DNA from: an uncultured Candidatus Poseidoniales archaeon
Lineage (GTDB): Archaea; Thermoplasmatota; Poseidoniia; Poseidoniales; Poseidoniaceae
NCBI GenBank assembly: GCA_964009815.1
Contig: CAXGJQ010000001.1
Location: 5,332-69,331, forward strand
Direction: 5' to 3'
Length of the DNA stretch: 64,000 nt
The notes under the pieces were generated by a model. It saw nothing but the letters and a program-made list of their open reading frames with translations. It searched no databases and was not told where the DNA came from. Position numbers and translations under genes: made by a program. This document shows, one piece after another, positions 33,488 through 57,400 of the stretch (positions within the stretch are counted from its first letter, which is position 1; every line of letters begins with the position of its first letter).

Positions 33488-35572
33488 ATGGCAGGCACAG
33501 CAGAACGCATGGCAAAAAATCAGAAGCAGGTCGCAATTTCAGAATTCTTTGAGAAAAACAAGCACTTTCTTGGTTTTGATTCCCTTACCCGCTCCCTCAT
33601 CACGGCCGTCAAAGAAGCGGTTGACAATTCACTTGACGCTTGTGAAGAAGCGCGCATATTGCCCGAAATTCGAGTTCAAATCAACAAGATCGATGACAAA
33701 AAGAACATCATTGAACTGAAGACCGAAGACAACGGCCCTGGCATCCCAAAGCGCAGCATCGAGAAGGTGTTCGGCCAACTCTTGTTCGGTTCCAGATTCC
33801 ACGCGATTCGTCAGTCTCGAGGGCAACAAGGCATCGGAATTACTGGAGTGGTCATGTACAGTCAATTGACGACGGGACGGAAAACCCATGTCCGCTCAAA
33901 AATTGCGACGGAGACCTCGGCAGCCACCGTCGATATTGGTCTTGACACACGCAAAAACAAAGCCACCAAAACCAATGAAGGCCGCGAATTGTGGGAGCGC
34001 CCCGACGGTACGCTGAAAGAACACGGGTTGGAAATCACCTGTAGAATGAAAGCCAAGTACCAGCGAGGAAGACAAAGCGTCTACCAATACCTGCGTATGA
34101 CCAGCATCGTAAACCCTCACGCCGATATCACATTTGTTGACCCGGACGGTGAAGTTCACCACTGGCCAAGAGTCACGGAGCGTCTTCCGCGGAAGGTGGA
34201 AAGCATCAAGCCGCACCCTCACGGAATCCATCTCGGAACCCTGCAACGTATGTGCACCGAATCGACGGACAGTCGAATGACCTCGTTTCTGTACAAGAAT
34301 TTCAGTGGTGTTTCATCTCGTGCAGCCAAACAACTGCTCGAAGCCGCGGGGGTTTTGGAAAAGGCAAAACCAAAATCGATGAAACCCGACCAAATTCGTG
34401 CGCTTCTCGAGGCCTTCCAAGGCGAGCGTTTGCTCAACGATAAAGCGGTCAAATTGCTCAATCCCCCTACCAATTGTTTGTCGCCCATCGAGGAGTTGCT
34501 CATCAAAAAGGGCCTCTCGAAGACCATCGATTCTCGCTTCGTCACCACCATGACGCGCTCGCCCACGGTCTCTCAAGGCAACCCGTATCAAGTGGAAGTC
34601 GGCCTGATCTTTGGAGACGGCATGGCAGCGGACAAGCCCGTTGAAGTGCTCCGATTCGCAAACCGCGTGCCGCTGATGTACCAACAAGGTGGTTGTTTGC
34701 TGACGAAAGCCATTGAATCGGTTGACTGGCGACAATATGGAATGGACCAAGCCGGTGGACGGGGCGTCCCGAAAGGCCCAGCAGCCATTCTGGTCCATCT
34801 GGCAAGCACGAACGTTCAATTCACTTCGGAAGCCAAGGAAGCCCTCGCCGAAAACGGCGAGGTCATGGACGAAGTTCGAAAAGCCATGTTGGAAATGGGA
34901 CGAGGGCTCCGAAAACACCTTGAGAAAAAGAAGAAAATGGTCAAGGTCCAAGAGAAGTTCGAACTGGTGAACGATATCATCCCCGCTATCGCTGAAAAAT
35001 CAGCGGCCATTTTACAACGCCCCGTTCCAGATTTGGCCGGCTCAATCACGAGGATCATGGGAGCGGTTATCGCAGAGAGCACCACGACTTGGAACAAGGA
35101 AACCAAGATGGTGGACATTGCCATCAAGCTGTTCAATTACACTTCGCGTGCTCGCGCCTACACCCTTCTTGCCTCTTGGCCAGAAAGTGCCGGGGCAAGC
35201 ATGGAAAACAACACCACTGGGGGGCGGAAAGAAGCAACAGGGGTTTGGGCGTGGAAACTTGAAACCCTTGACCCAGGCGAAACCTACACCATCACCTATG
35301 CGCTGAATGGATTGGAAAAGGGAGATTGGACGGAAACCGATGTGTTTTATCGAGGCAGTCAAGAAGTCATTGGTGCCTCAAAAATGGATGAAAAACTTCT
35401 GGAAGAAATTCGCCGTCAAGAAGCCAGGGAACAAGGCGAGGAAGAAGAGAGTGGCGAGGAAGAGGTCTCCCTTGAGGATACAGAGGAGAATGACGCCCCC
35501 CCTGAAATCGCTGATGACCAACCAAAGCCCTCGGGTCAACAAACCCTCATGGGGTTCGGGAGTGATGCATGA
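33488..35572 (+). CDS. top6B: DNA topoisomerase VI subunit B (GHKL ATPase) with acidic C-terminal tail
   Basis: Bergerat-fold motifs EAVDNSLDA, EDNGPGIP, GQQGIG, transducer domain. The last about 70 aa are E/D-rich. Confidence 0.9.
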   Translation: MAGTAERMAKNQKQVAISEFFEKNKHFLGFDSLTRSLITAVKEAVDNSLDACEEARILPEIRVQINKIDDKKNIIELKTEDNGPGIPKRSIEKVFGQLLFGSRFHAIRQSRGQQGIGITGVVMYSQLTTGRKTHVRSKIATETSAATVDIGLDTRKNKATKTNEGRELWERPDGTLKEHGLEITCRMKAKYQRGRQSVYQYLRMTSIVNPHADITFVDPDGEVHHWPRVTERLPRKVESIKPHPHGIHLGTLQRMCTESTDSRMTSFLYKNFSGVSSRAAKQLLEAAGVLEKAKPKSMKPDQIRALLEAFQGERLLNDKAVKLLNPPTNCLSPIEELLIKKGLSKTIDSRFVTTMTRSPTVSQGNPYQVEVGLIFGDGMAADKPVEVLRFANRVPLMYQQGGCLLTKAIESVDWRQYGMDQAGGRGVPKGPAAILVHLASTNVQFTSEAKEALAENGEVMDEVRKAMLEMGRGLRKHLEKKKKMVKVQEKFELVNDIIPAIAEKSAAILQRPVPDLAGSITRIMGAVIAESTTTWNKETKMVDIAIKLFNYTSRARAYTLLASWPESAGASMENNTTGGRKEATGVWAWKLETLDPGETYTITYALNGLEKGDWTETDVFYRGSQEVIGASKMDEKLLEEIRRQEAREQGEEEESGEEEVSLEDTEENDAPPEIADDQPKPSGQQTLMGFGSDA

Positions 35573-36669
35573 TGTCCGCCAGCCACACGCCAGAGGAAAC
35601 CAAAATTGCGCTGCACGAAGTTGTCACAGAAATGTACGACAAAATTGTCAAAGGCGAGCCTCCCACCATGACGTTGCCCGTCCGAACCAAAAACAACATT
35701 GGATTTGACAAGTCGCTCGGGGTCTACAAATACGGCAAGAAGCGGTCGATTCGAGATGCTACAAGCCTTGGTTCTGCCAAGCAATTGCTACGAGCCCTTT
35801 ACGTGGTGGAATTTATTGAAGAAATGATCAACACCAACAAATCCTCGACCCTCAGAGAGATGTATTACATCTCGGAGAGTTGGGGCCTTGGAAAGTTCTC
35901 ATCCCAGAACGAATCCAACAATCTCGCTGAAGATTTGGAAGTCGTGACCAAATGCCTTCGTGAAGACTTCAAGCTCCGCCCGGAAGAAGATGGAGCCAGA
36001 ATGATTGGAAACATCACCCTTCAGGAACGCAACCGACGAGGAGAATGGATGCGAATCAACGCTCGCGACGATGTAGGCGACTCTGGATACGGCGTTCCTT
36101 ACAACGTGGAAGAGGAGAAAATTGAGTTGCTTGAGCATGATGTCAAGTTCATCATGGCCATTGAGACCGGTGGTATGTTTGACCGGCTCATCGAAAATGG
36201 CTTCGATGAAGCATACAATTGCGCCCTTGTCCACCTCAAAGGCCAGCCTGCTCGTTCTACACGGCGCATCTTGAAGCGAATGAGTGAGGAATGGGACTTA
36301 CCCGTCGTCGTTTTCCTTGACGGCGACCCGTGGTCGTTCCGAATCTTTGCCTCCATTGCTTACGGAGCCATCAAGACGGCGCACATTTCCGAATACCTCG
36401 CCACCCCAACCGCCACCTACCTCGGCATTACATCGGATGACATTGAGGCCTACGACCTCCCAAGCGACGACCTTTCCTCACGAGACGTTGACGCGTTGAA
36501 GGCTGAACTTTCTGACCCACGGTTCGCCGACGCATGGTGGCAAGAGCAGATCAACATGATGCTGGAACTTGGCAAAAAGGCTGAACAGCAATCGTTGGCC
36601 AAATATGGACTTGATTTCGTCACCGACACCTACCTACCTGAGAAATTGAATGATTTGGGCCTAGCCTGA
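35569..36669 (+). CDS. top6A: DNA topoisomerase VI subunit A (Spo11-like)
   Basis: Winged-helix/CAP region with putative catalytic Tyr (EMYYISE) and Toprim (IMAIETGGMFDRL...FLDGDPWS). The start overlaps the top6B stop (ATGA). Confidence 0.9.
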   Translation: MMSASHTPEETKIALHEVVTEMYDKIVKGEPPTMTLPVRTKNNIGFDKSLGVYKYGKKRSIRDATSLGSAKQLLRALYVVEFIEEMINTNKSSTLREMYYISESWGLGKFSSQNESNNLAEDLEVVTKCLREDFKLRPEEDGARMIGNITLQERNRRGEWMRINARDDVGDSGYGVPYNVEEEKIELLEHDVKFIMAIETGGMFDRLIENGFDEAYNCALVHLKGQPARSTRRILKRMSEEWDLPVVVFLDGDPWSFRIFASIAYGAIKTAHISEYLATPTATYLGITSDDIEAYDLPSDDLSSRDVDALKAELSDPRFADAWWQEQINMMLELGKKAEQQSLAKYGLDFVTDTYLPEKLNDLGLA

Positions 36670-38574: not shown

Positions 38575-41500
38575 TCAGTTGTCAAGCTCGTCTGCAAGGA
38601 CTGAAACGAGAGACGATTGTTCAGCCAATCGCTTGTTCACTTCATCTCGACGTCCCTTGCCAACCAGATACACAACACCCAAGAGTGCGATGGTCAGGAC
38701 GATGACGGCGAATGGAAGGGCCGTCTTGCCCACAACTTCACGAGCAAGGTCAAGGACCGGGCTGTTGGACTGAAGGTCTTCTGGAATCGGTTTGACGTTG
38801 TCTTTCTCATCGGATTCAACGATCTCATTCATTGGGTCGACCACGACATAAACGCCCTTGCTACCGGCTGAAACAGGGTAGAGCAAGTAGAGTTCAATCT
38901 CCTTGGCATCTTCCGTGTCATCTGGTGCAAGCAACGCTCCCACCACTTGGCGCATGACCACGCGTTCTTCTTCGCAACCGTTGTCACGAATTTCCTTCAT
39001 GATGTCAGCATCGTTAGCTTCGCCATATTCGCAAAGAACAATCTCAATGTCAGTGGCATGGACGTTTCCAGTGTTTTGCAAGATGATACCGATAGGAATC
39101 GTCGAGTCAACTTCGCCCGATGTAGATGGTGGCATGATGATCTCCTTGATTTCGAGGTTTGGTGCTCGCAGACGGAGCGTGACAATGAACTCATTCGTGT
39201 CCAAATTCTCACCGTCCCATGCTGGGGAGTCGTCGTGGTCTCCATCGTTCTCCATGTCGCCAAACATGGAAACCACCTTCAGACCAATGCTTCGTGTGTC
39301 GAGTTTGGCGTCGGTGCCAATCTTCACAGCTGCAACGGCCGTGATGGTTTCATACGGAGCCATCTCAGGAAGGCGCCACTCGTCGAGGTCTTCGAGATAG
39401 ATACAGGCGTCTTCGGGGTAGGATGATGCGGTTGACTGCATGGTCATGCAAGATTCTTCGACAACGAGGTCAGCGCTGAGTTGGCGCATGATGAACCAGT
39501 CGACATCCCAACTGCTGAGAACGCTCATTCCAGGCAATTCATTCCATAGGAGTGAATCCCCATCGCGTTGGGCCGTATGGTTGTTCAAGGTTGGAACATC
39601 GGGCACGTTTCCGTTGTTGGTCACGTTGAACATGAAGCGAACGACACGGCCAGGAGCAGAAGTCTTCACCGCATTGTCAACGGTTGGATCCATTGAAATT
39701 TGCATGTCATGGAATTCATCAACGGTGACAGTTAGAACGATGGCATCTCGAATTCGTGTTTCACGACCGCTGGCGTCCGGATAGACTTCTTCGGAGAAGG
39801 CTTGGAGCACGATGGTGTATTCACCTGCTGGCACACGGTTCGGAACGTTCATTTCCACATCAAACGCCTGATAGGTATCTGGTGAGAGTTCTTGGAGAGT
39901 TTCACGAGGAATCTCAATGTCCCAGATGACGTCAACGCCGAAGGCATCGGTCACTCGAGCGAGGCGGAAATCAAACCGGTCGGGTCCATTGCCGTCGTTG
40001 GTGACCGTGATTGGCAAAGTGATCTTTTCGCCAGGATTCACATTCATTGAATTGCCAATCGCCGGGTCAATGCCAGCATCAAGGTCGAAAACGTGCTCTA
40101 CGGTGGTGGACAGGATCTCCGAATCCGAAATTCTCGGATATCCGTCAAGGTAGCCCTTCAGCGTAATGGCGGGCCCAAGGCCGGCCGTGGCGTTGTTTGG
40201 AGCGCAAACGTAGACCGTGATGCGCTTGGTGATTTTCTCTGCGTTTCCTGGGATGGTCCAAGCAATCGGGTCGCCTAGGCCATCGCCTGCATCCGCTGAG
40301 CCAGTAGCGTTATCGAAGTCAACGAGAACAACCCAGTTCTCTTCTCGCCAGGCAGGCATGCCCACACCGTCGGGCTTGGCATCGGGCGCTCCGGGTGTGG
40401 CAAAGACGAGTTCGCCGCTGTCAAAGTTCTTGGTGACGTTGACGTTGTAAGTGGCGCACTCTCCTGGCTTGACCTGTTCGGAGCGGTCATCGGCAGCAAA
40501 GACGATGTTTCCTGTTGAACGGATTGAAACGAACACGCCGAGTTCAAGGATGTCGTAGGTTCCCTTCTCAACGGACTTGATGGGTTCTCCTTCCGACCAA
40601 CCCTTCACGTAGATGACGAACGCTCCTGGATCTTCGGTTGTCGGCACAAAGACCTCGAGGTTCTTTGTAACCGATTGACCCGGGTCCAATTCCACTCGAA
40701 TGGGGAAGTTTACCTGCCATCCGAATGGCAACAACCATTCTTGCTGACCTTCGAGGCTGTTCGGGTCCCAGAAGACGAAGGCGTCGTTGACGTTCCCTGT
40801 GTTGGTGATGGTGATCGAGAAGATAGCGGTGTCGCCTTGTTCAATGTCCGCCATGCTGTGCGAGGTGTCGAGGTTGATTCCGTGAACAACGTCCATCAGT
40901 GTCAAGGTGATGATGTCGTTCTGAATGGCTGGATCTTTGTACGATTGTGCCGTTACACGAACTTCCGCAAGCTCGTCGCCGTTGGCCTGATAGATGGATG
41001 GTGCCTGAACTCGCATGTAGAATCGAATATCTTCGCCGCCTTCGAGGAAAATCGGGGTGTCCGGGAAGATGCTTGAATGGTTGGAGGCGAAGTAGAGGTT
41101 CGCCGTCCAATTCATTGGCACGCCTGAAATGTTCAGTCCATAGGTATCAGCGACCAGGTCTTTTGGACCGGGCGTTGAGTTGTTCATGGTCATGTTGTAG
41201 ATGGTCTGTTGGCCGGGTTCGATGACGTGGTAGAAGGTTTCACCCTCATCAAAGTCAACATCAACTTGACCTGTTAAGACGTGGGAATAGCATATTGTGA
41301 ATCGGTTGTTGTTACCGTCGTCACCGCACTTGTTCGTATCCGACCACGCAATGTGGGCGCCGCTTCCAAGGTCATTGGAAAATGCCGGGGGCATACCGAT
41401 GGAGGGTTGGCGTCCGCTATTTGGCCCGAGTTTATTCGAATTCCACGAGGTTACCGGAACCGCTTCCCACGGGTCGAGGGCCGTCAGGCCATCACCGGTG

Positions 41501-43605
41501 AGGTCGGTTTGATTCAATCGGACGTAGAGAACCTCTTCGTTAGCAGAGAGGTTACCTGAGTCGACCCATGCGATGTGGACATTGTTTTGGTCATCGGTCA
41601 GAAGCGATGGGAACACCGAGTTCCCGGCGTAAGGGGAGGCAGGTGGCAGCCCATTCTTTCCTTCAACGTTGGAAATGGGCGTGTCGTTAATCTTCTTGAT
41701 GGCGTACGTGGAAAGGCCTTCTTCAGCGCCATCCCAAGCACCTGCACCTTGGAGTCGAAGTTTGGTGTAGTAGATTTCGTAGTTGACGTCCTTTTCAAAT
41801 CCGTAATCTCGGCCATCCATCCAAGCGATGTGCGTGTTGCCTTGCATGTCAACACCAATGGAAGGGTGGAAGGAGTAGGCGTCATCAATCGTGACACGGG
41901 TGTCGTTGACCACAACCAAGTGGCCGTCGGCGCCTGCGCCGGTGTCTTCCGCGTAGGTGCCGCCCTGAGCTGTGTGTCCGGGCAACCCAGGTGTGAAACT
42001 TGGGTCGTTGTTCATCTTGGCATATGGGTCAAGAATGGACATGTAGATTTCACGGGAGTTGTTGGTGGAGATGTATACCATGGCTTCGACGAGGAGGGCC
42101 ATTTGGTTGGTTCCGGATCCCGATGGGAATTCGTATGCCTGGCCGCCGGCATCAGTGCTAGCGAGGGTATTACCGGGGCAATTTCGAGACTGAGTGGAGA
42201 CGATGCCGTTGGGGCACTGGACCAAGTCCATGAAGTGGGATTGGATGTTTCCTGCACCACCGTAGCCTTGGCCGTACAAACCAACGGGAACAACGCCGGC
42301 GAGGAGGCAGTTGTCGTGGGCCTCCTGGATGGCCGCTTTGTCATCGGCTTGCTGAGACGGGTCGCCGTCTTTGGGGCCTTCGTCTGAAACGGGAATCACG
42401 ATCTTTGTGGCGTTTGGGTTCCATCGGTGATCGGATTGAGTAGGAGGATTACCGGGAACGTTTCCGGCTGCGTCCTTCCATGAAAGACATGCCCAGTTGG
42501 AACCGGGGCCCCAATCCTCACCAGAATATCCGGAGTAGGTGTTGCCGTTGTAGATGGTCCCGGGCAGTTTGCGAATACCGCCAGAGTCGTCGCCGGGGGT
42601 TTGACCAAGCGGAGTGGTTCGTGGGCCGGTGTTCTGGTTGTATCCCTGGCAGTTGCCTGAGCTGGCTGCGCCGGGAAGGGTGTTGCCCAAACCATAGATG
42701 GTCTCGTAAACGGTCATGTTGCCTTCTTCGAGCATCGGCTTGATGCCTTGGAAGTAAGGGCCGCTTGCGAAGTTGCCGCCGTAAATGACCGTGCAGATGT
42801 CGGCCCATTCCGAATACATCGAACCGGAGGTGTCAACGATAAAGGCCAATTCGACCTTTCCACCGCGAGTGTCATCCCAAGCGATCTGAACGTAATCGTT
42901 GGCATCAACGACAACATCTGGGTGCCCCTTGTGGCCAATGATGGGTGTGAGGAGGGTGTCATCAAAGAGAGTGATGGTTGCACCAGAACCGATGTCGGGC
43001 TGAATCATGGAGTAGTAGATTTGCGGTTGGTTGAAGAAACGCCCCAATTCGTCATAGTTGTCTTGCCAAACGATGTGAACGTTGTTTTGACTGTCGATAT
43101 CGAGAGAGGGCCAGTCTCGGTTTTGAGACCGCCGCGAGATGATGGTGTCATCGATGGCCGTAATGGTGCCGTCGTCCGATGCCATGCCGTCCATTGGAGC
43201 GGCCCATGGCGAGAGTGCCGTGTACATGATGGCGTGTTGACCTGCTTTGTCGGCCCATACGATGTGGATGCGGTCGTATTCGTCGACAGCGAGATCAGGG
43301 TGCCAAACCTTGTGGAGTCCAGAATTGGTAATTTGGGTGGCGTCGATCAATGTCTCACCACGGGGAGACATCATCGAGTAGTAGAGGTGGAGGTTGTTCC
43401 GAGTCCATACCACGTGAACGTTTCCGGAGCTGTCAGAGCCAACAGCTGCTTGCGCATCGGACGATGTGCCACCGTCCACGATTTGGACGGCTTCGGTGAT
43501 TACGACGGTGTTTGCACTCACGGTAACGGAGGCGAGCAACAAGGAAGACATCACGGATAGAACCATGATTGATGCTAGACTGATGGATTTGATTTTTTGA
43601 CGCAT
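38575..43605 (-). CDS. Giant (1676 aa) membrane-anchored surface adhesin-like protein: signal peptide, beta-propeller-like HI(A/V)W-D repeats, VWA-like domain, multiple CARDB/Ig-like modules, C-terminal TM anchor
   Basis: N-terminal signal (SLASIMVLSVMSSLLLASVTVSA). Recurring NVHIVWxD / HIAWxD...YY units. VWA-like MIDAS region ELAFIVDTSGSM. CARDB-like segments (LEIKEIIMPPSTSGEVDSTIPIGIILQNTGNVHATD). C-terminal TM LPFAVIVLTIALLGVVYLVGKGRRD. Confidence 0.8.
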   Translation of the reverse strand: MRQKIKSISLASIMVLSVMSSLLLASVTVSANTVVITEAVQIVDGGTSSDAQAAVGSDSSGNVHVVWTRNNLHLYYSMMSPRGETLIDATQITNSGLHKVWHPDLAVDEYDRIHIVWADKAGQHAIMYTALSPWAAPMDGMASDDGTITAIDDTIISRRSQNRDWPSLDIDSQNNVHIVWQDNYDELGRFFNQPQIYYSMIQPDIGSGATITLFDDTLLTPIIGHKGHPDVVVDANDYVQIAWDDTRGGKVELAFIVDTSGSMYSEWADICTVIYGGNFASGPYFQGIKPMLEEGNMTVYETIYGLGNTLPGAASSGNCQGYNQNTGPRTTPLGQTPGDDSGGIRKLPGTIYNGNTYSGYSGEDWGPGSNWACLSWKDAAGNVPGNPPTQSDHRWNPNATKIVIPVSDEGPKDGDPSQQADDKAAIQEAHDNCLLAGVVPVGLYGQGYGGAGNIQSHFMDLVQCPNGIVSTQSRNCPGNTLASTDAGGQAYEFPSGSGTNQMALLVEAMVYISTNNSREIYMSILDPYAKMNNDPSFTPGLPGHTAQGGTYAEDTGAGADGHLVVVNDTRVTIDDAYSFHPSIGVDMQGNTHIAWMDGRDYGFEKDVNYEIYYTKLRLQGAGAWDGAEEGLSTYAIKKINDTPISNVEGKNGLPPASPYAGNSVFPSLLTDDQNNVHIAWVDSGNLSANEEVLYVRLNQTDLTGDGLTALDPWEAVPVTSWNSNKLGPNSGRQPSIGMPPAFSNDLGSGAHIAWSDTNKCGDDGNNNRFTICYSHVLTGQVDVDFDEGETFYHVIEPGQQTIYNMTMNNSTPGPKDLVADTYGLNISGVPMNWTANLYFASNHSSIFPDTPIFLEGGEDIRFYMRVQAPSIYQANGDELAEVRVTAQSYKDPAIQNDIITLTLMDVVHGINLDTSHSMADIEQGDTAIFSITITNTGNVNDAFVFWDPNSLEGQQEWLLPFGWQVNFPIRVELDPGQSVTKNLEVFVPTTEDPGAFVIYVKGWSEGEPIKSVEKGTYDILELGVFVSIRSTGNIVFAADDRSEQVKPGECATYNVNVTKNFDSGELVFATPGAPDAKPDGVGMPAWREENWVVLVDFDNATGSADAGDGLGDPIAWTIPGNAEKITKRITVYVCAPNNATAGLGPAITLKGYLDGYPRISDSEILSTTVEHVFDLDAGIDPAIGNSMNVNPGEKITLPITVTNDGNGPDRFDFRLARVTDAFGVDVIWDIEIPRETLQELSPDTYQAFDVEMNVPNRVPAGEYTIVLQAFSEEVYPDASGRETRIRDAIVLTVTVDEFHDMQISMDPTVDNAVKTSAPGRVVRFMFNVTNNGNVPDVPTLNNHTAQRDGDSLLWNELPGMSVLSSWDVDWFIMRQLSADLVVEESCMTMQSTASSYPEDACIYLEDLDEWRLPEMAPYETITAVAAVKIGTDAKLDTRSIGLKVVSMFGDMENDGDHDDSPAWDGENLDTNEFIVTLRLRAPNLEIKEIIMPPSTSGEVDSTIPIGIILQNTGNVHATDIEIVLCEYGEANDADIMKEIRDNGCEEERVVMRQVVGALLAPDDTEDAKEIELYLLYPVSAGSKGVYVVVDPMNEIVESDEKDNVKPIPEDLQSNSPVLDLAREVVGKTALPFAVIVLTIALLGVVYLVGKGRRDEVNKRLAEQSSLVSVLADELDN

Positions 43606-43744: not shown

Positions 43745-44380
43745 TTAAGCCCATTCAGTCGGGTCAAATCCTGAGCCAAATGACATCTTCTCATCGAACT
43801 CGATTTGAGCAGGTGGGTGGGCCTCTTCGGCGAGGGGTTGTCCCTCGCTGTTGGGCTTGGATTTCGCCCAATCATCAACCGGTCCAGATTTGCCCACTCC
43901 GGGGCCGTAGGAATACTTGATTTCATGAATCAAGGCAAGTTTTGCCAGCCATAGACGTCGGAGGCTGTTCATGAACTCATGTTTGGTAAGTCCATCAAAC
44001 CAAATTGGTAGACTCACGTTGAAGGCTTGGAGGGGGCCTGGTTTCTTTTCGCCCTTATGGCCCATGTGTATCACCCAATCCACGCCGGTACGAATCAAAT
44101 GCAATCGACTTTCATGAATCCATTCAGACCAATCACTCTCTTCGTCATCCATGTGGTCTTTCATTTCCTTTTGTTGCCCTTCATCGACCCTCGTCATGCT
44201 CGATACAGCCACCAAGTCTCTGCCCTTCGGAACAACGATGGCGAACATGTGCCCTTGCTTGCCGCTTGGATATCGAACAAGGAAATGAGCGTGGGCCCGA
44301 GGGTCCTTTTGCGCCTTGGCTGAAAGCCGCTCTTCCGTGAGCCACTTTTTGAGCAGGGCGACGGTTTCGTCGGGCGTCAT
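43745..44380 (-). CDS. Hypothetical conserved protein
   Basis: 211-aa ORF with coding composition. No motif recognised. Confidence 0.35.
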   Translation of the reverse strand: MTPDETVALLKKWLTEERLSAKAQKDPRAHAHFLVRYPSGKQGHMFAIVVPKGRDLVAVSSMTRVDEGQQKEMKDHMDDEESDWSEWIHESRLHLIRTGVDWVIHMGHKGEKKPGPLQAFNVSLPIWFDGLTKHEFMNSLRRLWLAKLALIHEIKYSYGPGVGKSGPVDDWAKSKPNSEGQPLAEEAHPPAQIEFDEKMSFGSGFDPTEWA

Positions 44381-44418: not shown

Positions 44419-46011
44419 TCACGAGGCCAATTCATCCAATAGACGACCAAGTCGCGCTTTTTCCTCGCTCGAAAACCTCATTCGGACCCATGCATTTCGG
44501 GTGTCAACCCATGCATCCCACGCTGCAGCGAATGATTTGCCGCTCATCCAAAAGACAGGAAAACAAAGAAAATACACCACGAGAAGGCCACTGGCGGGCG
44601 AATACCCCCCGAGTTCAAGCCATGAAACGTTCCATCCAAATGTGCAGGCGATCCACTCACGGTAGAACCAAGTCAGTGTGGTCCAAAATCCAGCCACTAC
44701 AGGCCAGATGAGGAGTGAGCCAAAGAAAGCGGCGAGGAACTGATAGCTGGTTCGTGCATCCAGCCCTTCGTCCGTGGAATCACCGAGGAGGCGCCCAAGG
44801 GCGACTTGGAATCCAAGAGAAGTAAGAGCAAAAGGAAGGAGTGCAATAAAGAAGAGCACAGAGAGCAACGCCGATGGTAGGCGTTTCCAGTTGGCCTTTC
44901 GAAGCACCCGCCCCTGCGGGCCGAGGGCTCGTCCATCCAACCCATGTGATTCGAGCAGTTCTGCTGCTTCCGAGGCTCGTTCAAACCTCTCCCCTTCCAG
45001 CGGCTGTGGTGGAAGCACGGCTTGGCGCCCCGGCCATGTATCTCGAATGGCTCGTGCGGCCAAAACCTCGTCTTGCCAGGATTTGAGGCGTTTTCCATTC
45101 CCCCGCGCCTGAGCATGAGCCATGAGGTGCAAGGCACGGTGCTCCTCCCATGAGGATGAATTCGGTGTCATGGTCGGGAGGCGTTCTTGGAGTTGATCGC
45201 GTATTCGGTGAACGGAGGCCTCAGGCGGTTCGGTCCAGCCGCCTTGTCGGACAGCATCTACCATCTCAGAAGGAATCATCTCGTCAGACAATTCAATCGG
45301 TTCTCCAAATTCAATGAACTGATCGGTTCGAAACAATTCTCTTCGGCGGAAATGCAAGCCAATGGGAACGAGATGGGGCAGAGGGAGTCCTTTGGCCTTG
45401 GCCAGTGCTGCGGCGGCGAGGACTGTCCGGAAAGGCCCGGTCTTGAACCGAATCATGTGGGATTCGCTGTGACTGGTGCCTTCCGGGAACAGGACGCATC
45501 CAAAGCCGTGCGCGATCCCGCTGGAGAGGGCGAGAAGAGACCGCCCATTGAGGTGGAGAGCTTCCTCTTCTGTGCAACCTCCCCTGAGAAGTTCGGCTTT
45601 GCGGACCACGGGTTGGACGGCCAAACGTCGTGTCCACCACCCCAACAGAGGGCGGGTGACCAAATCATGGCGGGCACCGACGACGAACTCTTTGGGGTGA
45701 TTAAGGAAAATGGCGAGAGGGTCCATGAGGCCGTTGGTGTGCCACCCGCAACACATTGCCCCAGCACCATCTACAGTCAGGGGCGTTGCCTTGGAAGTGG
45801 CCGTGGTTCGAAACTGAACGCTCGATACCCTTCTGCACATCCAAAAGGCAACCTTTGTCCAAAGGTAGGATCCAGGAACTGAGGAATCGTAGGTAGGCAG
45901 AGGAGTTGCTAGCAACTTTTCGATGTTCATGTTCTTCGCAGAGGATGACAGGATGGGGAGTGCTTCGCCGTTATGCATCATTTCTTCTTCTTCAGTGACG
46001 ATGGTGGCCAT
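44419..46011 (-). CDS. Lysophospholipid/glycerol-3-phosphate acyltransferase family (PlsC/LPLAT) with C-terminal multi-TM extension
   Basis: Acyltransferase motif I HTNGLMD (H-x4-D), motif III FPEGTSH, downstream hydrophobic helices (LLSVLFFIALLPFALTSLGF, SLLIWPVVAGFWTTL). Confidence 0.6.
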   Translation of the reverse strand: MATIVTEEEEMMHNGEALPILSSSAKNMNIEKLLATPLPTYDSSVPGSYLWTKVAFWMCRRVSSVQFRTTATSKATPLTVDGAGAMCCGWHTNGLMDPLAIFLNHPKEFVVGARHDLVTRPLLGWWTRRLAVQPVVRKAELLRGGCTEEEALHLNGRSLLALSSGIAHGFGCVLFPEGTSHSESHMIRFKTGPFRTVLAAAALAKAKGLPLPHLVPIGLHFRRRELFRTDQFIEFGEPIELSDEMIPSEMVDAVRQGGWTEPPEASVHRIRDQLQERLPTMTPNSSSWEEHRALHLMAHAQARGNGKRLKSWQDEVLAARAIRDTWPGRQAVLPPQPLEGERFERASEAAELLESHGLDGRALGPQGRVLRKANWKRLPSALLSVLFFIALLPFALTSLGFQVALGRLLGDSTDEGLDARTSYQFLAAFFGSLLIWPVVAGFWTTLTWFYREWIACTFGWNVSWLELGGYSPASGLLVVYFLCFPVFWMSGKSFAAAWDAWVDTRNAWVRMRFSSEEKARLGRLLDELAS

Positions 46012-46436
46012 CAGTTCACCCCCTCAAGTTTGGTCGAAAGAGCCCCAAGGGCGACGTGGTTTGGTTCAGTGGCCTTGGTCGCCGGCCACATGGCCATCAA
46101 CGTACCTCCTCCATCACCGGGGGTGCGTGGGAGAACATGGACATGGACATGGGGGACTTCTTGACCTGCAAGTGGTCCATCGTGGACGCAAACGGTGAAA
46201 TCGGTCGTTGAGAAGTGATGTCCAAGGCGACGTTGGACCTCCTCTACGCCGTCCATCAAAGCCGCCCGTTCATCCGATTGGAGGGCGGCTAAGCGTTGGA
46301 CGGGGCGAGTCGGGATGACCAAGGTGTGGCCTTCCCGCCGCGGGAAGATGTCAAGAAAGGCGTACCATCCGTCGCCACGAGCCACTGGATGGGAGGGAAT
46401 CTCGCCCGACAAGATCCTCTCGAAGAGCGTGGTCAT
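46011..46436 (-). CDS. HIT-family (histidine triad) nucleotide hydrolase
   Basis: HVHVHVLPR histidine-triad motif. FERILSGEIPS N-terminus typical of Hint proteins. Start taken at MTTLFERIL. Confidence 0.8.
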   Translation of the reverse strand: MTTLFERILSGEIPSHPVARGDGWYAFLDIFPRREGHTLVIPTRPVQRLAALQSDERAALMDGVEEVQRRLGHHFSTTDFTVCVHDGPLAGQEVPHVHVHVLPRTPGDGGGTLMAMWPATKATEPNHVALGALSTKLEGVN

Positions 46437-46465
46437 GCCATGCCCTGTGGGACTGATGTCTTTTT

Positions 46466-48085
46466 TCATTGTGGAGGAAGAACCCAATGTCCGCCTGCTC
46501 CTTTCTTGATGGCCAAAGAGGCCACTGTTCCCTCGCGGTCCACCGTAATGTGGTGCAGGAAGTCATCGTTGGACTCCGGGAAGTCATCGCGCTGGAAGGC
46601 CCCCCGCGATTCTTCTCTCGCCAAACCGCTCTGAACCGAAGCCGTGACCATACGAACGGCGGCTTGAGCACGAAGTATTTCGAGAAGATTCGTGTTGGCA
46701 ATGAGCGATTTTTGGTCGACGTGAAGGGATTCTGCTGCTATTGAAATTTGTTCGAGTTTGCCATGAAGTTTGTTCATGCTGTCAGCCGAGAGAGAGGATG
46801 TTGCGGCGAGGGCCGCCTGGAGGTTGGCCATGACCGTCCCGCAGCGCACAACATGGCTTTCATCACCGGTTTCCATCATCGCTGAAACATCGCTTGTTGC
46901 TTCAGCGAGAGCCGATTCAAGTCCGGAGGCCGCACTGAATTTTCGACTTGAAACCCATTCGCCGGCTTGGTTTCCAGCAGCAGCGCCGGAGCCGATGGCA
47001 TCGAGGAGGCGATTTCCACTCAATGGGGCTGCTCCATGGAAGCCAGTGCAAGCTGCGCTACCTGCAGCATAAAGACCGGTGAACCAGCGAGACCATGCCC
47101 CTACGACGCAACGGCCATGCCCATCAACGGGCAATCCGCCAAGGGTATGGCCGACCGTTGGTTGCAGTGGAACCGTTTGACGGTTCATGTCAATGCCTGT
47201 TCGTTGCTGGACGAGCCGGAAGAGTGAGGTCCACCACGCTGCACTTTGCCCGAGGTTTCGAGCATCAAGGACCGGTTGAACGGCTGCGTTCAAGGCTTCA
47301 GTCAGTTCTTGAGAGGATTGGTTGGCCACCTCGATAGGGGCTCCAGATGCCTCGTGAAGTTGAGCGCCATCCAAAAGGAGGCCGGTTGGAAGGAACACGT
47401 CCGTGCCCTTGATCGTTAATGGATGATGAGCCATGAATTCCATGTCCCGGAGGGCAACTCCAGCTCGAAAGGCCATGTCCATGCCCAGTCCAACGACGCC
47501 TGAAGAATAGGCGCCTTCGAAACCTTCATCGGCGATGATAATCGCTTTGCATTGCAACCCAATAATGCGACCATTCACCATGTCAAGGGCAATCATGCCT
47601 TCAACCGATTGATTGGCGTGAACCAAGGTGAGGGGGATTTGATCTCCACGGCGAATGACGCCATGGCGCATGCACTGTTCTTCACCCACCTGTTGGATAC
47701 CGAGGGCTGTGCCGCTTCCGGCATCAACCGTTCGGGGTTGTTGGTGGCCTGGACCTTTTCGAACCATAGGGAGACCTTGTTGATCTCGGCGAAAATTCAC
47801 GCCGCGGCGTTCCAGAAGGTCAACTTGCTTGATGGCTCCAGCCGTCCTTTCAGCAACGATGTCTTGGTCGCAAAGAAACGCTCCACAGCGGATAGTATCT
47901 TCCCGGTGGCTACGGTTGTTTGATTCTTGCAGCGAGGCTGAGAGCCCTTCAAGAGCGGCCATTCCAGGATTTCCTAATCCTGTCGCAGACATCATCAAGG
48001 TGCTGGCACCGGACTTGGCCGCTTCAGCAGCAGCGTGCAATGCAGCGGGCCCGTCTCCAAGCACAATCACATCCCATGCTTCCAT
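46466..48085 (-). CDS. nadB: L-aspartate oxidase (SdhA/FrdA/NadB flavoprotein family; NadB-like)
   Basis: DVIVLGDGPAAL FAD motif. RSHREDTIRCGAFLCDQD aligns with the E. coli NadB block DSHVEDTLIAGAGICDRH and lacks the SdhA covalent-His SHT motif. HHPLTIKG, ESRGAFQRDDFP. No adjacent Fe-S subunit. Confidence 0.65.
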   Translation of the reverse strand: MEAWDVIVLGDGPAALHAAAEAAKSGASTLMMSATGLGNPGMAALEGLSASLQESNNRSHREDTIRCGAFLCDQDIVAERTAGAIKQVDLLERRGVNFRRDQQGLPMVRKGPGHQQPRTVDAGSGTALGIQQVGEEQCMRHGVIRRGDQIPLTLVHANQSVEGMIALDMVNGRIIGLQCKAIIIADEGFEGAYSSGVVGLGMDMAFRAGVALRDMEFMAHHPLTIKGTDVFLPTGLLLDGAQLHEASGAPIEVANQSSQELTEALNAAVQPVLDARNLGQSAAWWTSLFRLVQQRTGIDMNRQTVPLQPTVGHTLGGLPVDGHGRCVVGAWSRWFTGLYAAGSAACTGFHGAAPLSGNRLLDAIGSGAAAGNQAGEWVSSRKFSAASGLESALAEATSDVSAMMETGDESHVVRCGTVMANLQAALAATSSLSADSMNKLHGKLEQISIAAESLHVDQKSLIANTNLLEILRAQAAVRMVTASVQSGLAREESRGAFQRDDFPESNDDFLHHITVDREGTVASLAIKKGAGGHWVLPPQ

Positions 48086-48184: not shown

Positions 48185-49720
48185 TCAGACTTTGGGGAGA
48201 GGGAGTGTTGCCCACGTCCGGGCTCGTTCGAGATGGCGGTTTTTCTTTCGGAGTTGGAAATTGGATTTTCGCTTCACTACGGTCCGAAGGACGCGCGATT
48301 CGATAACAACACCGGACTCATCGCGCAAAATAACCTGGACGTATCGGTCTCCTTGCTCTCGCGTAGGCCATGCGACTCCCAACCACAGCACGACCCCTTG
48401 TTGCAGATACCGTGGCACCCAGTCCAAAGCGTCATCCTCTCCTTCGGCATTGAGGCTGACAGCTTGGCGAGGGGGAGGGCAAGCCTGCAATTCAAACCGG
48501 TGATCGCGGGCAAAGGGCTCTCCGCCGGGGCAGACGACCTCAATCCTCGCCACGGTTTGATTGAAGGTCTGATTGTTGAGGGCGATGAACAGATGCCCGG
48601 TTCCATCATCGCATTCGGGGTCAAGAGCAACATCCATTCGCCAAGGAGAGCGCAACATGCTCGGCGACCCTGAAAGAAGGTCGAGTTGCAAGCGCTCGAG
48701 CAAACGGAAGGCGCTGGGTTGCCACACCCGAGCGTGCGCCAACAGACGTTGAAGCGAACGCCAGTTGAATTTGGCCCCCTCGTCGAGTAAAACGTCGTGG
48801 ATGGCATCCGGTCGGATAAATTCGCTCAATTCACTCATGGCGATGTCATTGCTCAAGTCGCCCTTTGCATGCAAATGAAGGATGTACAATACGCGCTCCC
48901 AAGATTGCTCTTTGTCGTAGCCGGGCAAAATACTCTCTCGGAATCCGTCCAACCAAGCTCGCCAATCCAAGTAAAGGTCAGGATCGAGGTGCAACACAAT
49001 CAATTCGCCAAGAATTGAGCCCAACTGGGTCGGATGGTGGGTTGGTGCATGATGGGCCAGGCAGGGCATTTGATCGCCGTGTTGACGAACGGCATCAGAC
49101 GTGAAGAACGAATGGAAGGAATGGGCGAAACCCAACGTCATGGACACGAGGAACGAAAGGTTCCACACCAAGGAATCTTGTCGAATGACCGTACCAAGTC
49201 CGAGAAGAAATACTGCGCTAATGGCTAACAAGCTGTTGATGGTGTTGTGCCTGCGGACATCGGTTAATCCCTCAAGTATGCGGTCCATACCGGGTTGAGA
49301 GCGCAAAGAAAGTTTGCCGCCGGTGGTCTCATCATCAATTTCACGAAGGGAAATCCGCGCTTGGATGGATTGCCACATGGCTTCGCCAGCAAAGAGAGGT
49401 GGGGCCGCCGTGACCAGGAGAGGCAGTAGCCAAAACAGCATGACATAGCCCGGGTTAGGAGGGGCCACTGAGGGGAGAATTACTGAGAGAAGGGCGACGA
49501 CGGCAACACTGGCGCCAAAAAGAAGGCGGACCATCATCGAAATGGGGTGCCTTGCCACCCTTCCAAACCGCATGCGAAGTTTCTCTTGATGTTGCCATTT
49601 CTCAACGGTACGTTCCAGTGGATTTTCGGTTCGTGCGAACCCATGTCCGTACGGATCGGGAAGCGAACTGGCTGCATCCGATGGGTCGTCCGCCATGTCA
49701 TCCCCATCCAAGGGGTGCAT
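48185..49720 (-). CDS. Hypothetical membrane protein (about 510 aa)
   Basis: Multiple TM helices in the N-terminal half, soluble C-terminal half. The ORF-track start (49804) overlaps the tRNA-Arg. An internal Met at 49720 was used. Confidence 0.4.
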   Translation of the reverse strand: MHPLDGDDMADDPSDAASSLPDPYGHGFARTENPLERTVEKWQHQEKLRMRFGRVARHPISMMVRLLFGASVAVVALLSVILPSVAPPNPGYVMLFWLLPLLVTAAPPLFAGEAMWQSIQARISLREIDDETTGGKLSLRSQPGMDRILEGLTDVRRHNTINSLLAISAVFLLGLGTVIRQDSLVWNLSFLVSMTLGFAHSFHSFFTSDAVRQHGDQMPCLAHHAPTHHPTQLGSILGELIVLHLDPDLYLDWRAWLDGFRESILPGYDKEQSWERVLYILHLHAKGDLSNDIAMSELSEFIRPDAIHDVLLDEGAKFNWRSLQRLLAHARVWQPSAFRLLERLQLDLLSGSPSMLRSPWRMDVALDPECDDGTGHLFIALNNQTFNQTVARIEVVCPGGEPFARDHRFELQACPPPRQAVSLNAEGEDDALDWVPRYLQQGVVLWLGVAWPTREQGDRYVQVILRDESGVVIESRVLRTVVKRKSNFQLRKKNRHLERARTWATLPLPKV

Positions 49721-49749
49721 GGCCCTGATTATGGCTCTTGTCCAAAAAC

Positions 49750-49826
49750 TGGCGGGCGTGGCAGGATTCGAACCCGCGATCTCCGGCTTAGGAGGCCGGT
49801 GCATTATCCAGCTGTGCTACACGCCC
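49750..49826 (-). tRNA. tRNA-Arg (anticodon CCT)
   Basis: The minus-strand sequence GGGCGTGTAGCACAGCTGGATAATGCACCGGCCTCCTAAGCCGGAGATCGCGGGTTCGAATCCTGCCACGCCCGCCA folds with a 7-bp acceptor stem, a 5-bp anticodon stem with loop CUCCUAA (CCU), a GGTTCGAATCC T-loop and an encoded CCA. The D-stem has one mismatch. Confidence 0.8.
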
Positions 49827-54406: not shown

Positions 54407-57400
54407 TCACTCGTTCTCAGTTCGGCGGTTGCCAGCAACTGCAGCAAGGCCAATGAGAGCGATGACCGTGAGTGGGGAGACGAAGGGCAAGAGGCCTGAA
54501 TCTTCAGCGGCTTCTTCTGCCGTCTCAGGTTCATCCACTTCTTCGGCGGTGTTGTCGTCGCCCGTTTCTGTGTTGTCAGGGAATCCGAGGTCGGACGTGT
54601 CCGCACCTGCGTCTTCAAGCACCTGCGAGAGTTCACCAAGGTCGTGGTCTTCAACGTCCACGATGTCTTCAAGGTCGGAAAAGTCAGCCATTTCTTGCTG
54701 AGCTGCTTGTGCAGGAGCGCCAGTGATGTAGCGGATGCTAGCGAAGGTCATTGGTCGGTCTTCGCTGTAGCCGGTCGTGGTTGGTCCAGCGATGACGTAG
54801 CCGTTCTCGTCCTCGTCCCATGCGTAAAGGCCAACACCCACGATGGTGGCCTGTTCATCGCTCCAAAGAGGAGCCCACATGCCGTCAACGTAGGGGAATT
54901 CTGGAACTTCATTCTCTGCAACATCTTCGAAGGTTGCACCAATGTTCTCGCCAAAGGCTTGGAGAACATCTCCAAGACCTGATTCAGCAAGCGCTTCACC
55001 GATGGTCATGAGTTCGTCGCTGGGTTCGCGGGCTTCTTCGAACTCAATGCATTCACTCTGTGAATCAAAGGGCTCGCTTTGGCCGGCTTGTGTAAGGTGA
55101 ACTTCCAAGCAGTATTCTCCTGGACCGGAAACGTCAACGATTTCCTCAGAGTAGAGCGTTGATTCATCGGCCCACTCCTCGAAGCCTGTGGTCACCATGG
55201 TGTTGGCCCCGTCGGTGACGTCCATCAGTTGCCACGACATCGTAACGTCATCATATTCGCCGTAGCCGGCTTCGGCAACGACGCGGAGTTGGTTATCCTC
55301 TTCGAGGTACACGTGGGTGCCCCAAACTTCAGGGCCCATGTAATGACTACTGCAAATCTCAGTGGCCTCTACGAGCAACGTGCCATCGGCTTCAGAAATG
55401 TGCCCTCCAGAACACATTTCCATGCCGCCGTAGGTGGACGGTGCCATGACTTCAGAGGTGTAGGTAGTCCACTGATCGCTTCTCTCGTCGTCTACTGTAA
55501 TATCGCAGCCCCATTTGGCGCAAACCATGAGGTCCTGAGTTGCCATGAGGGCGTTCCCGTCTCCGTCGTTGATGTAAGCGTCCATCATGAAGAAGATGGC
55601 CTCGCCTTCATCAGAACCATCCGGGCAGTCAACGGTCCCGTCATTGAGGAGTTCAAAGGAAATGGAGTTGGTGTAATCGGCGCAATAGAATGTTTGCCCG
55701 TCGTTTTCATCGTACTCATCGCCTCCATCTTCGCAATTGGCCACGCCGTCGTTGACGTACTGCCATGGAATCTGGTCATAATTTTCGCACATGAACCATT
55801 TTCCTTCGTTGTCAGCTGGTTCATCCGAACCATCCGCGCAATCGCTGCTTCCATCGTTGACGAGTTCAAAGGAGATATCCATGCCGTCATGGCACGTATA
55901 GGTGGTCGTCTGGGTGTTGGCAAACTCATCGGAGCCATCATCGCAATCGTCCCAACCATCGTTGGCGTTGTCAATGGTCAGTTCTTGATACATGCCATCG
56001 TACTCGCACATGATGGTGGGTGAAGTTTCGAATCCAAAGACATCGATATCCATATGTTGACCAAATCCGTAATAGTAGTCGCCAGATTCCCAGTCCTCAT
56101 TCATTTGACCACGAAGATAGAAGTCCATTTCATCTGAACCATCGCTGCAATCTTCGTTTCCGTTGTTCATTTGCCATTCATAGATCATCTCACCACTGTC
56201 GCACATGACCATGTCATCGTCATGGTAGTGGTCATCTTCATCACCACCTACGCCGAAGATGTTCTCGAATATGTCTGCGAAGGAATCTTCGAGTTCGGCC
56301 TCAAAGTCTTCTGCAACCGCCTCGCCAAAAGATTGGCTGGCGTGGGTAATGACGTTGCCCATCATGATGAACATGACTGGGTTTCCAGGGGGGCATGTGT
56401 CACAGGGCGTGGCATCGATGACCGTACCGTCGCCGAGGTCAACTTCCAAGGTCTCGTCCGAGCGCATGTTGAAGTTGACATCTTCCATGTTGGCCTCGCC
56501 TTCGTAGTCGCCTTCGTTGGTGAGTTCGTCGCTGATGCTGATATCGAATTGACCTTCATCAAATCCAAACTCTTCCATGGGCAAGCCACTGAGATAAACG
56601 TTGTAATCGGCCGAACCGATGTAGGTGCCATCAAGCATTCCGCACAAATCTTCGACTTCTACTTCGCCGCCTTCTCCGTATACGCCGACATCGGATGGGT
56701 CGTCGATGCAATCCCAGTCCGTGTTGTCGTTTGCAGCCGCCTCAACGTAAATCGGGCTAGGGGCGCCCAAGCGCCATTCTGCATCAGAGCCAATGGAATA
56801 ACTGAATTCAATTCCAGTGTCGAAGTCAATGTTCAACTGCTCGCCACCGCCCTCGACCATAATGTCAATTCCGAGGTTCATGTCGTTGGAGATCATCATA
56901 TCGAAATCCATGTCTGCTCCAAGAAGTTGATACTGGTCGTTGAGGTACTCCGTGTAGAGCATGTCAACCGTCAAGACATTTTCAGCTTCGGCAATGACGT
57001 CGATATCAAAGCCATTTGGGTCGCTGCCAAAGGTGGTTTCTGACCAGTCCGTCATGATGACGGCGTTGGAAAGGAGACCGTGGCGAAGCACCACGTCGCT
57101 GGTGCGGCTCCAAACTTGCACGTCGTTGCCGTCCAGGTCTTGGATGGTCTGAACCGAGATGTCTTCGGTTTGGTGAACGTAGACGTTTGAGGAACCCGTG
57201 GTCAACTGACCAAGGTCGAGGTTGAACCCTGCGCCGTCAGCGTCTTCCATGATTTCAGAGAACAATTCTTGAATGTCCAAACCTGTGACGTTTTGCAAAT
57301 CACTGTCGAGGCTTGTCCAGTCGTATTCTACACCGTAGTAATACTCGGAGGCTTCAGCAGGGACTGCGGAAACGGTGGTTAGGGGGGTGATTGCTGCAAG

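Follow-up and report, generated by a model that had tools for sequence, protein, structure and literature searches.

A Sct1/Gpt2-like HX5D acyltransferase, publicly labelled PlsC, as a candidate glycerol-3-phosphate acyltransferase of marine Poseidoniales archaea

The 64,000-nucleotide stretch of DNA analysed here (hereafter, the window), from an uncultured Candidatus Poseidoniales archaeon, carries on its minus strand, at 44419..46011, a gene for a 530-aa acyltransferase of the LPLAT superfamily, as indicated by its open reading frame (ORF), its match to the Pfam family PF01553, its homologs and an AlphaFold2 (AF2) model. Based on its motif spacing and whole-protein architecture, the protein belongs with the HX5D 'GAT' clade of yeast Sct1/Gpt2. 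We propose, at about even probability, that it is a membrane-anchored acyl-CoA:glycerol-3-phosphate (G3P) sn-1 acyltransferase, possibly also acting on dihydroxyacetone phosphate (DHAP). The HX5D placement alters the predicted pathway and makes the gene a candidate for the initiating step, because members of this clade, where characterised, perform the first (sn-1) acylation of G3P/DHAP.

The preliminary description of this DNA had placed a 530-aa acyltransferase ORF at this position, and our analysis bears this out. The PF01553 (Acyltransferase) profile matches residues 83-208 with 30.1 bits (E=4.8e-7), above the gathering score of 23, and together with the catalytic His/Asp pair, the FPEG motif and an alpha/beta fold it places the protein in the LPLAT superfamily. 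The catalytic domain, predicted to be cytoplasmic, extends over residues ~50-260 (45232..45864, minus strand, as for all the motifs and domains of this protein given below), as delimited by the Pfam match and by structural matches obtained with Foldseek, and no N-terminal hydrophobic segment was found by hydropathy analysis. A helical linker domain follows at residues ~264-354 (44950..45222), in which the AF2 model places helices at 264-281, 288-304, 312-324 and 341-354. The several transmembrane (TM) helices that had been described after the catalytic domain correspond to a C-terminal membrane region, residues 375-511 (44479..44889), defined by hydropathy and by the AF2 secondary structure. 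Three hydrophobic segments lie here, at about 380-404, 424-446 and 472-492, and the modelled membrane helices comprise a kinked pair, 375-390/392-411, with the near-invariant P393, and helices 417-449 and 472-511. The same region contains an invariant acidic loop, GRLLGDSTDEGLDARTS (residues 406-422, 44746..44796), which is specific to the archaeal core family: it is invariant in the archaeal alignment, limited to archaeal sequences of the P0121-P0137 type, and missing in the bacterial and eukaryotic relatives.

The HX5D spacing of motif I sets the fungal Sct1/Gpt2 glycerol-3-phosphate/dihydroxyacetone phosphate acyltransferases (GPAT/DHAPATs) apart from the other LPLATs compared (Smart et al. 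2014, PMC4207751; Athenstaedt, PMC7613133). The reported consensus of the fungal group fGPAT-B is HxNxφφD, φPφxR, FPEG[T/G/I]S[H/Y] and φφP[V/C/T]π, with inter-motif spacings of 36-40, 21-104 and 29-35 (PMC4207751). In the 530-aa protein, we find HTNGLMD, QPVVR, FPEGTSH and LVPIG, spaced by 35, 34 and 31; thus, only the distance between motifs I and II falls outside the fGPAT-B range, by one residue. Motif I, HTNGLMD (H91-x5-D97, 45721..45741), agrees with HxNxφφD and holds the catalytic His and Asp, set one residue further apart than in HX4D; it had been described as an HX4D motif, a reading that the H-x5-D spacing does not support. Motif II, QPVVRKAE (45592..45615), includes the invariant R137, fits φPφxR and is proposed to bind the glycerol-phosphate. 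Motif III, FPEGTSH (residues 175-181, 45469..45489), present as first described, matches the fungal signature exactly, with Ser-His replacing the EGT-Arg of PlsC. It is followed by a KTGPFR block (45427..45444), whose T191, G192 and R195 are conserved across the superclade and which aligns with FKTGAF of Escherichia coli PlsC, and by motif IV, LVPIG (45358..45372), with conserved P216 and G218, which fits the fungal φφP[V/C/T]π with Ile at the variable position. The likeness to the Sct1/Gpt2 type also includes full-length homology.

Twenty homologs with 50-84% identity all retain H91, N93, G94, D97 and F175-H181. In an alignment of 69 sequences from the three domains of life, H91, D97, R137, FPEG and G192 are invariant, while N93, P134, S180, T191, R195, P216, G218, P393 and P437 are near-invariant. 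Since these motifs persist both among the close homologs and across the three domains, their conservation in the aligned sequences is far more than would be expected by chance.

An exhaustive profile search of 1.84 billion protein representatives (E<=1e-3) returned only 1,973 relatives. Among the 150 best matches, all 65 proteins of at least 380 aa have the H-x5-D spacing, and most of these near-full-length relatives also have Asn at position 3 of motif I, FPEGxSH, PxGL and C-terminal hydrophobic segments. Besides the archaeal core family, the HX5D relatives comprise three further groups, namely a second Thermoplasmatota clade, a Myxococcota family of ~500 aa and eukaryotes. Named members of the ~500-aa bacterial family belong to Myxococcota/Sandaracinaceae, together with one Alphaproteobacteria metagenome-assembled genome (MAG), and the eukaryotic relatives come from Willaertia (Heterolobosea), oomycetes and Basidiomycota, the last of these being the taxon range of fGPAT-B. 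In profile-profile comparisons with hhalign, the archaeal profile aligned with the Myxococcota family over 389 columns (probability 100%, E=1.7e-40) and with the oomycete/Willaertia/Basidiomycota group over 320 columns (99.8%, E=2.3e-28). The exact Sct1/Gpt2 signature is found in the protein P0363, which has HANQFVD and FPEGGSHDR and, between motifs II and III, a long insertion; the three-domain profile aligned with this protein over 378 columns (E=2.3e-35). Because this alignment spans the linker and the membrane region, the likeness concerns the whole architecture rather than a single motif. Comparisons with the Myxococcota family, the eukaryotes and P0363 likewise indicate that the helical linker is common to bacterial and eukaryotic HX5D relatives; it is absent from PlsC. 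Several relatives carry the Joint Genome Institute (JGI) label 'glycerol-3-phosphate O-acyltransferase/DHAP acyltransferase'. The proteins that show this spread of the clade over Thermoplasmatota, Myxococcota and diverse eukaryotes include P0228, P0262, P0355, P0358 and P0360 besides P0363.

The comparison with PlsC, the label that the preliminary description had given to this protein, had a different outcome. The PlsC model TIGR00530 (AGP_acyltrn) scored 22.8 bits, below its cut-off of 102.95, and no other NCBIfam model matched the protein, even at E<=10. With E. coli PlsC, the archaeal profile aligned only marginally, over 104 columns (probability 50%, score 38), and the three-domain profile over 163 columns, restricted to the domain. 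With E. coli PlsB, the archaeal profile showed no similarity (probability 0.2%), so the PlsB type is not indicated either. A single-sequence search of the PDB with the 530-aa protein found nothing, and the only solved structure reached by a sequence profile was Thermotoga maritima PlsC (TmPlsC; 5KYM), over half the domain. In that alignment, HMMER needs a one-residue gap in motif I of PlsC, and S180 stands opposite R159, the Arg of EGT-Arg, which in TmPlsC has been reported to coordinate the phosphate of lysophosphatidic acid (LPA). Based on the low TIGR00530 score, the HX5D spacing in place of HX4D, S180 in place of the EGT-Arg, a size twice that of PlsC and the C-terminal anchor, we consider that, as far as its sequence tells, the 530-aa protein is not a canonical PlsC, and that hundreds of public archaeal and Myxococcota proteins annotated automatically as 'PlsC' are probably assigned to the wrong subfamily. 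The broader part of the original assignment, to a glycerolipid-type acyltransferase of the LPLAT superfamily, is upheld, with the catalytic His/Asp pair intact; the protein stays among the glycerolipid acyltransferases, in a different subfamily, and does not move to a tafazzin-like or lipid A class.

An AF2 model built from the 69-sequence alignment had a mean predicted local distance difference test (pLDDT) score of 89.5 and a predicted TM-score (pTM) of 0.86. A first model, from 20 close homologs, was discarded because pLDDT was <50 in the catalytic core. A Foldseek search of the PDB returned, all with probability 1.00, human GPAT1 (8E4Y, 7.5e-6), TmPlsC (5KYM, 1.7e-5) and the plastid GPATs 1IUQ/8IA1. 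The modelled structure thus confirms the LPLAT fold and does not discriminate among subfamilies.

We infer the catalytic activity, acyl donor, acceptor and regiospecificity of the 530-aa protein as follows. The N-terminal domain would lie on the cytoplasmic side of the membrane, where H91 and D97 would act as a charge relay activating the hydroxyl of the glycerol-phosphate acceptor, whose phosphate would be held by R137 of motif II, by S180-H181 of motif III and by K190/T191/G192/R195. The acyl group would come from acyl-CoA, because archaea lack acyl carrier protein (ACP) and Marine Group II (MGII), i.e., the Poseidoniales, runs beta-oxidation. Membrane anchoring would be provided by the helical linker and the C-terminal helices, which probably form kinked hairpins around P393 and P437. 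The reaction would be the sn-1 acylation of G3P, possibly of DHAP, to LPA, the first committed step towards ester lipids, with G3P supplied by the G3P dehydrogenase reported in Poseidoniales.

Several observations weigh against this proposal. Characterised enzymes occur only in fGPAT-A (Sct1/Gpt2), and none belongs to the archaeal, Myxococcota or fGPAT-B groups. The long insertion of fGPAT-A, 97-132 aa between motifs II and III, is absent from the 530-aa protein, and the archaeal profile, when used alone, aligned only modestly with P0363 (probability 93%, score 62, 111 columns). The fold search does not separate GPAT from LPA acyltransferase (LPAAT), as the neighbouring scores of 8E4Y and 5KYM illustrate. 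No other ester-lipid gene (PlsY, PlsX, GpsA or a second LPLAT) was found within the 64-kb window, and field lipidomics has not shown the membrane composition of MGII. Additionally, HX5D is also found in the bacterial lyso-lipid O-acyltransferases SqdA, SalA and OlsF-N; therefore, the spacing alone does not fix the substrate.

A serious alternative, although on the whole an unlikely one, is that the protein performs the second acylation, i.e., that it is an LPAAT with the function of PlsC and a different family origin, with 1-acyl-G3P as its acceptor, or else a lyso-lipid with an ether linkage, e.g., geranylgeranylglyceryl phosphate. If the acceptor were ether-linked, the product of this sn-2 or hybrid-lipid role would be the hybrid ether/ester lipid that Villanueva et al. 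proposed for MGII. The public annotation and the literature speak of PlsC, TmPlsC is among the top structural matches to the LPLAT fold, and the FKTGxF block is common to E. coli PlsC. According to the literature, MGII also retains geranylgeranylglyceryl phosphate synthase (GGGPS) and digeranylgeranylglyceryl phosphate synthase (DGGGPS) in the absence of glycerol-1-phosphate (G1P) dehydrogenase, and PlsC is relaxed with respect to backbone stereochemistry. Nevertheless, the failure of the PlsC model, the HX5D spacing and the Ser at the LPA-phosphate-coordinating position of TmPlsC all speak against an LPAAT, and the whole-length relatives bear the signature of Sct1/Gpt2 and not that of AGPAT.

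It is more doubtful that the protein is a lyso-lipid O-acyltransferase serving remodelling or a non-phospholipid, similar to SqdA, SalA or OlsF-N, or re-acylating scavenged lysolipids in the manner of Aas, instead of taking part in de novo phosphatidic acid synthesis. The bacterial HX5D enzymes known so far, SqdA, SalA and OlsF-N, have been reported to branch separately from the HX4D enzymes, MGII has been described as a lipid-consuming heterotroph, and some bacterial relatives of the 530-aa protein are translationally coupled to a major facilitator superfamily (MFS) transporter. Yet neither OlsF nor any other curated lyso-lipid acyltransferase model matches the protein, even at E<=10. SqdA and SalA are much shorter proteins, and they are not known to have the helical linker or the C-terminal membrane region. 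The MFS partners, in turn, resemble the anion:cation symporter/organophosphate antiporter (ACS/OPA) type rather than LplT and are absent from the archaeal locus, and we rejected the MFS-acyltransferase pairs as LplT-Aas analogues on the former ground.

The pairs themselves lie on two bacterial metagenomic contigs (L088 8718-11344 and L090 8799-11281), where the gene of an HX5D acyltransferase of about 430-447 aa begins 4 nt before the MFS gene ends, and they may represent an uptake-acylation pair. Elsewhere among the bacterial relatives, the vicinity of the Sandaracinaceae homolog P0404 contains a tandem pair of lipoxygenase genes as well as a GDSL lipase (L083, 11154-14632 and 2825-3979). Lipoxygenases are uncommon in bacteria. 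The 439-aa HX5D acyltransferase P0377 (L089 10001-11320) has a weak match to Pfam FA_desaturase in its C-terminal membrane part. The neighbourhoods of the bacterial relatives (L083-L085 and L088-L090) are not conserved, and no pathway partner was found in them.

The highly conserved archaeal loop 406-422, which has no known catalytic role, could suggest that the protein is a membrane protein of LPLAT fold that has lost catalysis and serves a structural or regulatory function; this is very improbable, as catalytic and substrate-binding residues invariant across three domains are what purifying selection on an active enzyme would be expected to leave.

The preliminary description had also held that the contig is archaeal and not bacterial contamination, and the genomic context agrees. 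The window encodes transcription factor B (TFB; 30256-31203), topoisomerase VI (Topo VI) B/A (33488-36669) and further archaeal markers, namely the replication factor C (RFC) small subunit, phosphopantothenate synthetase, TYW2/Trm5 and DUF2299, as well as tRNA-Arg(CCT) and tRNA-Asp. Of the neighbouring genes first named, the analysis confirms the HIT gene, the RFC small subunit and tRNA-Arg(CCT), while 'NadB' is not established, since the flavoprotein so called scores below the curated cut-offs of both SdhA and NadB (TIGR01812, 245 vs 567; TIGR00551, 171 vs 453). The GC content of the acyltransferase gene is 0.560, close to the 0.543 of the window. We detected 566 homologs, the best 120 of which are all full length (mostly 524-545 aa); among these 120, the named ones are all Candidatus Poseidonia, Poseidoniaceae or Poseidoniales, and their functional labels, where given, are the automatic PlsC. 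A scan of species-representative genomes gave 128 matches, including the closed MG-II chromosome CM001443.1. Among the 80 of these matches that were listed, to which the synteny and contig-title counts refer, all contigs but one are titled Poseidoniales, Euryarchaeota, Methanobacteriota or Thermoplasmatota. A co-directional block of the RFC gene, an ORF of 539 codons, the flavoprotein, HIT, acyltransferase and DUF2299 genes and the gene of a 1676-aa surface protein recurs in 72-79 of the 80 loci, down to 50% identity. The exceptional contig (L014, NZEQ01000016.1) was deposited under the name 'Verrucomicrobiales bacterium ARS100', but the Poseidoniales gene order is complete in it, Topo VI A included; it is therefore an archaeal contig that was mis-binned into a bacterial MAG. 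Since the more divergent members of the family are named Candidatus Thalassarchaeaceae, the gene spans both families of Poseidoniales; it is a vertically inherited core gene of the order, ancestral to Poseidoniaceae and Thalassarchaeaceae.

The Myxococcota affinity of the nearest non-archaeal relatives and the Verrucomicrobiales label of one contig might point to contaminating bacterial DNA, to a chimeric assembly or to a gene that was acquired horizontally in recent times and has no fixed role. This reading has a negligible probability: it is refuted by the synteny, which the labelled contig shares, and is at odds with the archaeal titles of the other listed contigs, the closed chromosome, the GC content, the overlap of the acyltransferase start with the stop of the syntenic HIT gene and the monophyly of the archaeal clade. 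In a neighbour-joining tree of 81 sequences (422 columns, 200 bootstraps), which is crude and has a single short outgroup that is not robustly placed, this archaeal core family is monophyletic at 100% bootstrap. The core family groups with the Myxococcota family and the second Thermoplasmatota clade at 72% bootstrap, and the eukaryotic sequences group elsewhere. Based on this grouping, the tree suggests an ancient inter-domain transfer between marine Thermoplasmatota and Myxococcota, in either direction. The second Thermoplasmatota clade (P0204, P0282 and P0260; 533-548 aa), labelled Euryarchaeota/Thermoplasmatota, has HPSGLID or HAGAMVD as motif I, has no DEGxDAR loop, and groups with the Myxococcota family and not with the Poseidoniales core family; the gene of P0282 (L086/L087 10001-11602) adjoins a xanthine-dehydrogenase-type molybdoenzyme cluster. 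The sole match in a plasmid collection was an unannotated region of the 1.1-Mb Gemmatirosa kalamazoonensis replicon NZ_CP007129.1 (406099-406695), with 28% identity over residues 86-301.

MGII are among the most abundant archaea of surface seawater. They have been reported to lack G1P dehydrogenase and to possess fatty-acid metabolism as well as G3P dehydrogenase. Both the link to the lipid divide and the occurrence of homologs in planktonic archaea, raised in the preliminary description, are correct and already published: Villanueva 2017, Coleman 2019 and Besseling 2020 discussed a possible mixed membrane of MGII and its 'PlsC homologs'. The 530-aa protein may be the 'PlsC homolog' of Villanueva 2017. 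Ester-lipid acyltransferases in MGII are thus already known, and the subfamily reassignment alone appears to be new; in the literature searched, we found no earlier HX5D Sct1/Gpt2-like reassignment and no description of a clade distributed over Thermoplasmatota, Myxococcota and eukaryotes. A wider reading, to which we attach a low probability, is that Poseidoniales membranes contain G3P lipids with fatty-acyl esters, or hybrid isoprenoid-ether/acyl-ester lipids, for which this enzyme would be the entry step, and that the HX5D 'GAT' clade marks the prokaryotic root of the eukaryotic endoplasmic reticulum (ER) GPAT. In that case, the lipid divide would have been crossed by one of the most abundant archaea of the ocean. 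A proper phylogenetic study of the prokaryotes related to the eukaryotic ER GPAT family may be worthwhile.

The gene directly upstream of the acyltransferase gene encodes a HIT-family protein (46011..46487, minus strand; PF01230, 89 bits; adjacent in 79/80 loci), the likely true start of which is the in-frame ATG at 46469. It is preceded by the gene of the SdhA/NadB-family flavoprotein (46466..48085, minus strand; adjacent in 78/80 loci). The flavoprotein stop overlaps the HIT ATG as ATGA, and the HIT TGA stop overlaps the acyltransferase ATG as TGATG, with a GGGGGTG run ahead of this junction. Judged by these overlaps, the three genes apparently form a translationally coupled trio, in which the flavoprotein gene comes first; because the whole 20-kb region is syntenic, we draw no functional link among them. 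Downstream by 38 nt and in the same direction lies the DUF2299 gene (43745..44380, minus strand; PF10061, 53.5 bits; adjacent in 79/80 loci), whose only solved relative, 3CXJ, is uncharacterised. A 90%-identity cluster of the acyltransferase, P0134, also holds 212-aa DUF2299 members with no similarity to the acyltransferase, so a fused or read-through acyltransferase-DUF2299 gene call must exist somewhere.

The 539-aa ORF of the block (48185-49826, minus strand) overlaps tRNA-Arg(CCT) (49750-49826) by 55 nt as listed. Its N-terminus, PEIAGSNPATP, is tRNA read-through, and the real start is therefore probably Met29 or Met37. Although no Pfam or NCBIfam model matches it, this ORF is syntenic in 72/80 Poseidoniales loci. 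Two very large predicted surface proteins are encoded in the window, both on the minus strand: the 1676-aa protein of the block (38575-43605), in which CARDB, DUF7507 and NEW3 domains are accompanied by a signal-like segment at the N-terminus and a TM anchor at the C-terminus, and a 1014-aa protein (54407-57451) with weak LDL-receptor class A-like matches. On the plus strand, the window also encodes a type IB topoisomerase that combines a eukaryotic Topo I catalytic core with a bacterial TopIB N-terminal domain (4683-5858), and a 668-aa protein with an Eco57I-type restriction-modification methylase domain (23348-25354).

Among known systems, the yeast ER enzymes Sct1/Gpt2 (Gat2/Gat1) and their sister group fGPAT-B share with the archaeal protein H-x5-D with Asn at position 3, FPEGxSH, φφPxG and, to within one residue, the fGPAT-B spacing ranges, as well as the succession of an N-terminal LPLAT domain, a helical linker and C-terminal membrane helices. 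Where fGPAT-A has Gln-Phe-φ in motif I, the archaeal protein has Gly-Leu-Met, and unlike Sct1/Gpt2 it is prokaryotic, contains the invariant loop G[DN]xTDEG[LI]DAR and has a gene that forms an operon-like trio with those of the HIT protein and the flavoprotein. The identity of the eukaryotic HX5D members to the archaeal protein is only about 15-21%. The Sandaracinaceae (marine Myxococcota) proteins of ~500 aa, its closest non-archaeal relatives, share its motifs and length and are uncharacterised and automatically annotated as PlsC or GAT; they differ in their identity of about 21-24%, in motif I (WHPNGLVDP vs WHTNGLMDP), in lacking the DEGxDAR loop and in gene neighbourhoods that are unrelated to the archaeal block and not conserved.

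SqdA, SalA and OlsF-N, set beside the archaeal protein by their descriptions, share the HX5D motif I and FP[E/S]G in motif III. SalA has Val at the position of PlsC Arg159, where the archaeal protein has Ser-His, and OlsF is a longer two-domain protein with HX5D in its N-terminal domain, the model of which does not match the archaeal protein. PlsC (E. coli b3018; T. maritima 5KYM) has in common with the archaeal protein the LPLAT fold, the His/Asp pair and the FPEGT and FKTG blocks, but it combines HX4D and EGT-Arg with a size of about 240 aa and an N-terminal anchor, whereas the archaeal protein combines HX5D and Ser-His with 530 aa and a C-terminal anchor. Finally, PlsB and mitochondrial GPAT1 (8E4Y) share the superfamily fold, and GPAT1, with 12% identity, is the top Foldseek match; both differ from the archaeal protein in HX4D, in an EGxRSR motif III and in their domain organisation, and E. 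coli PlsB shares no profile similarity with it.

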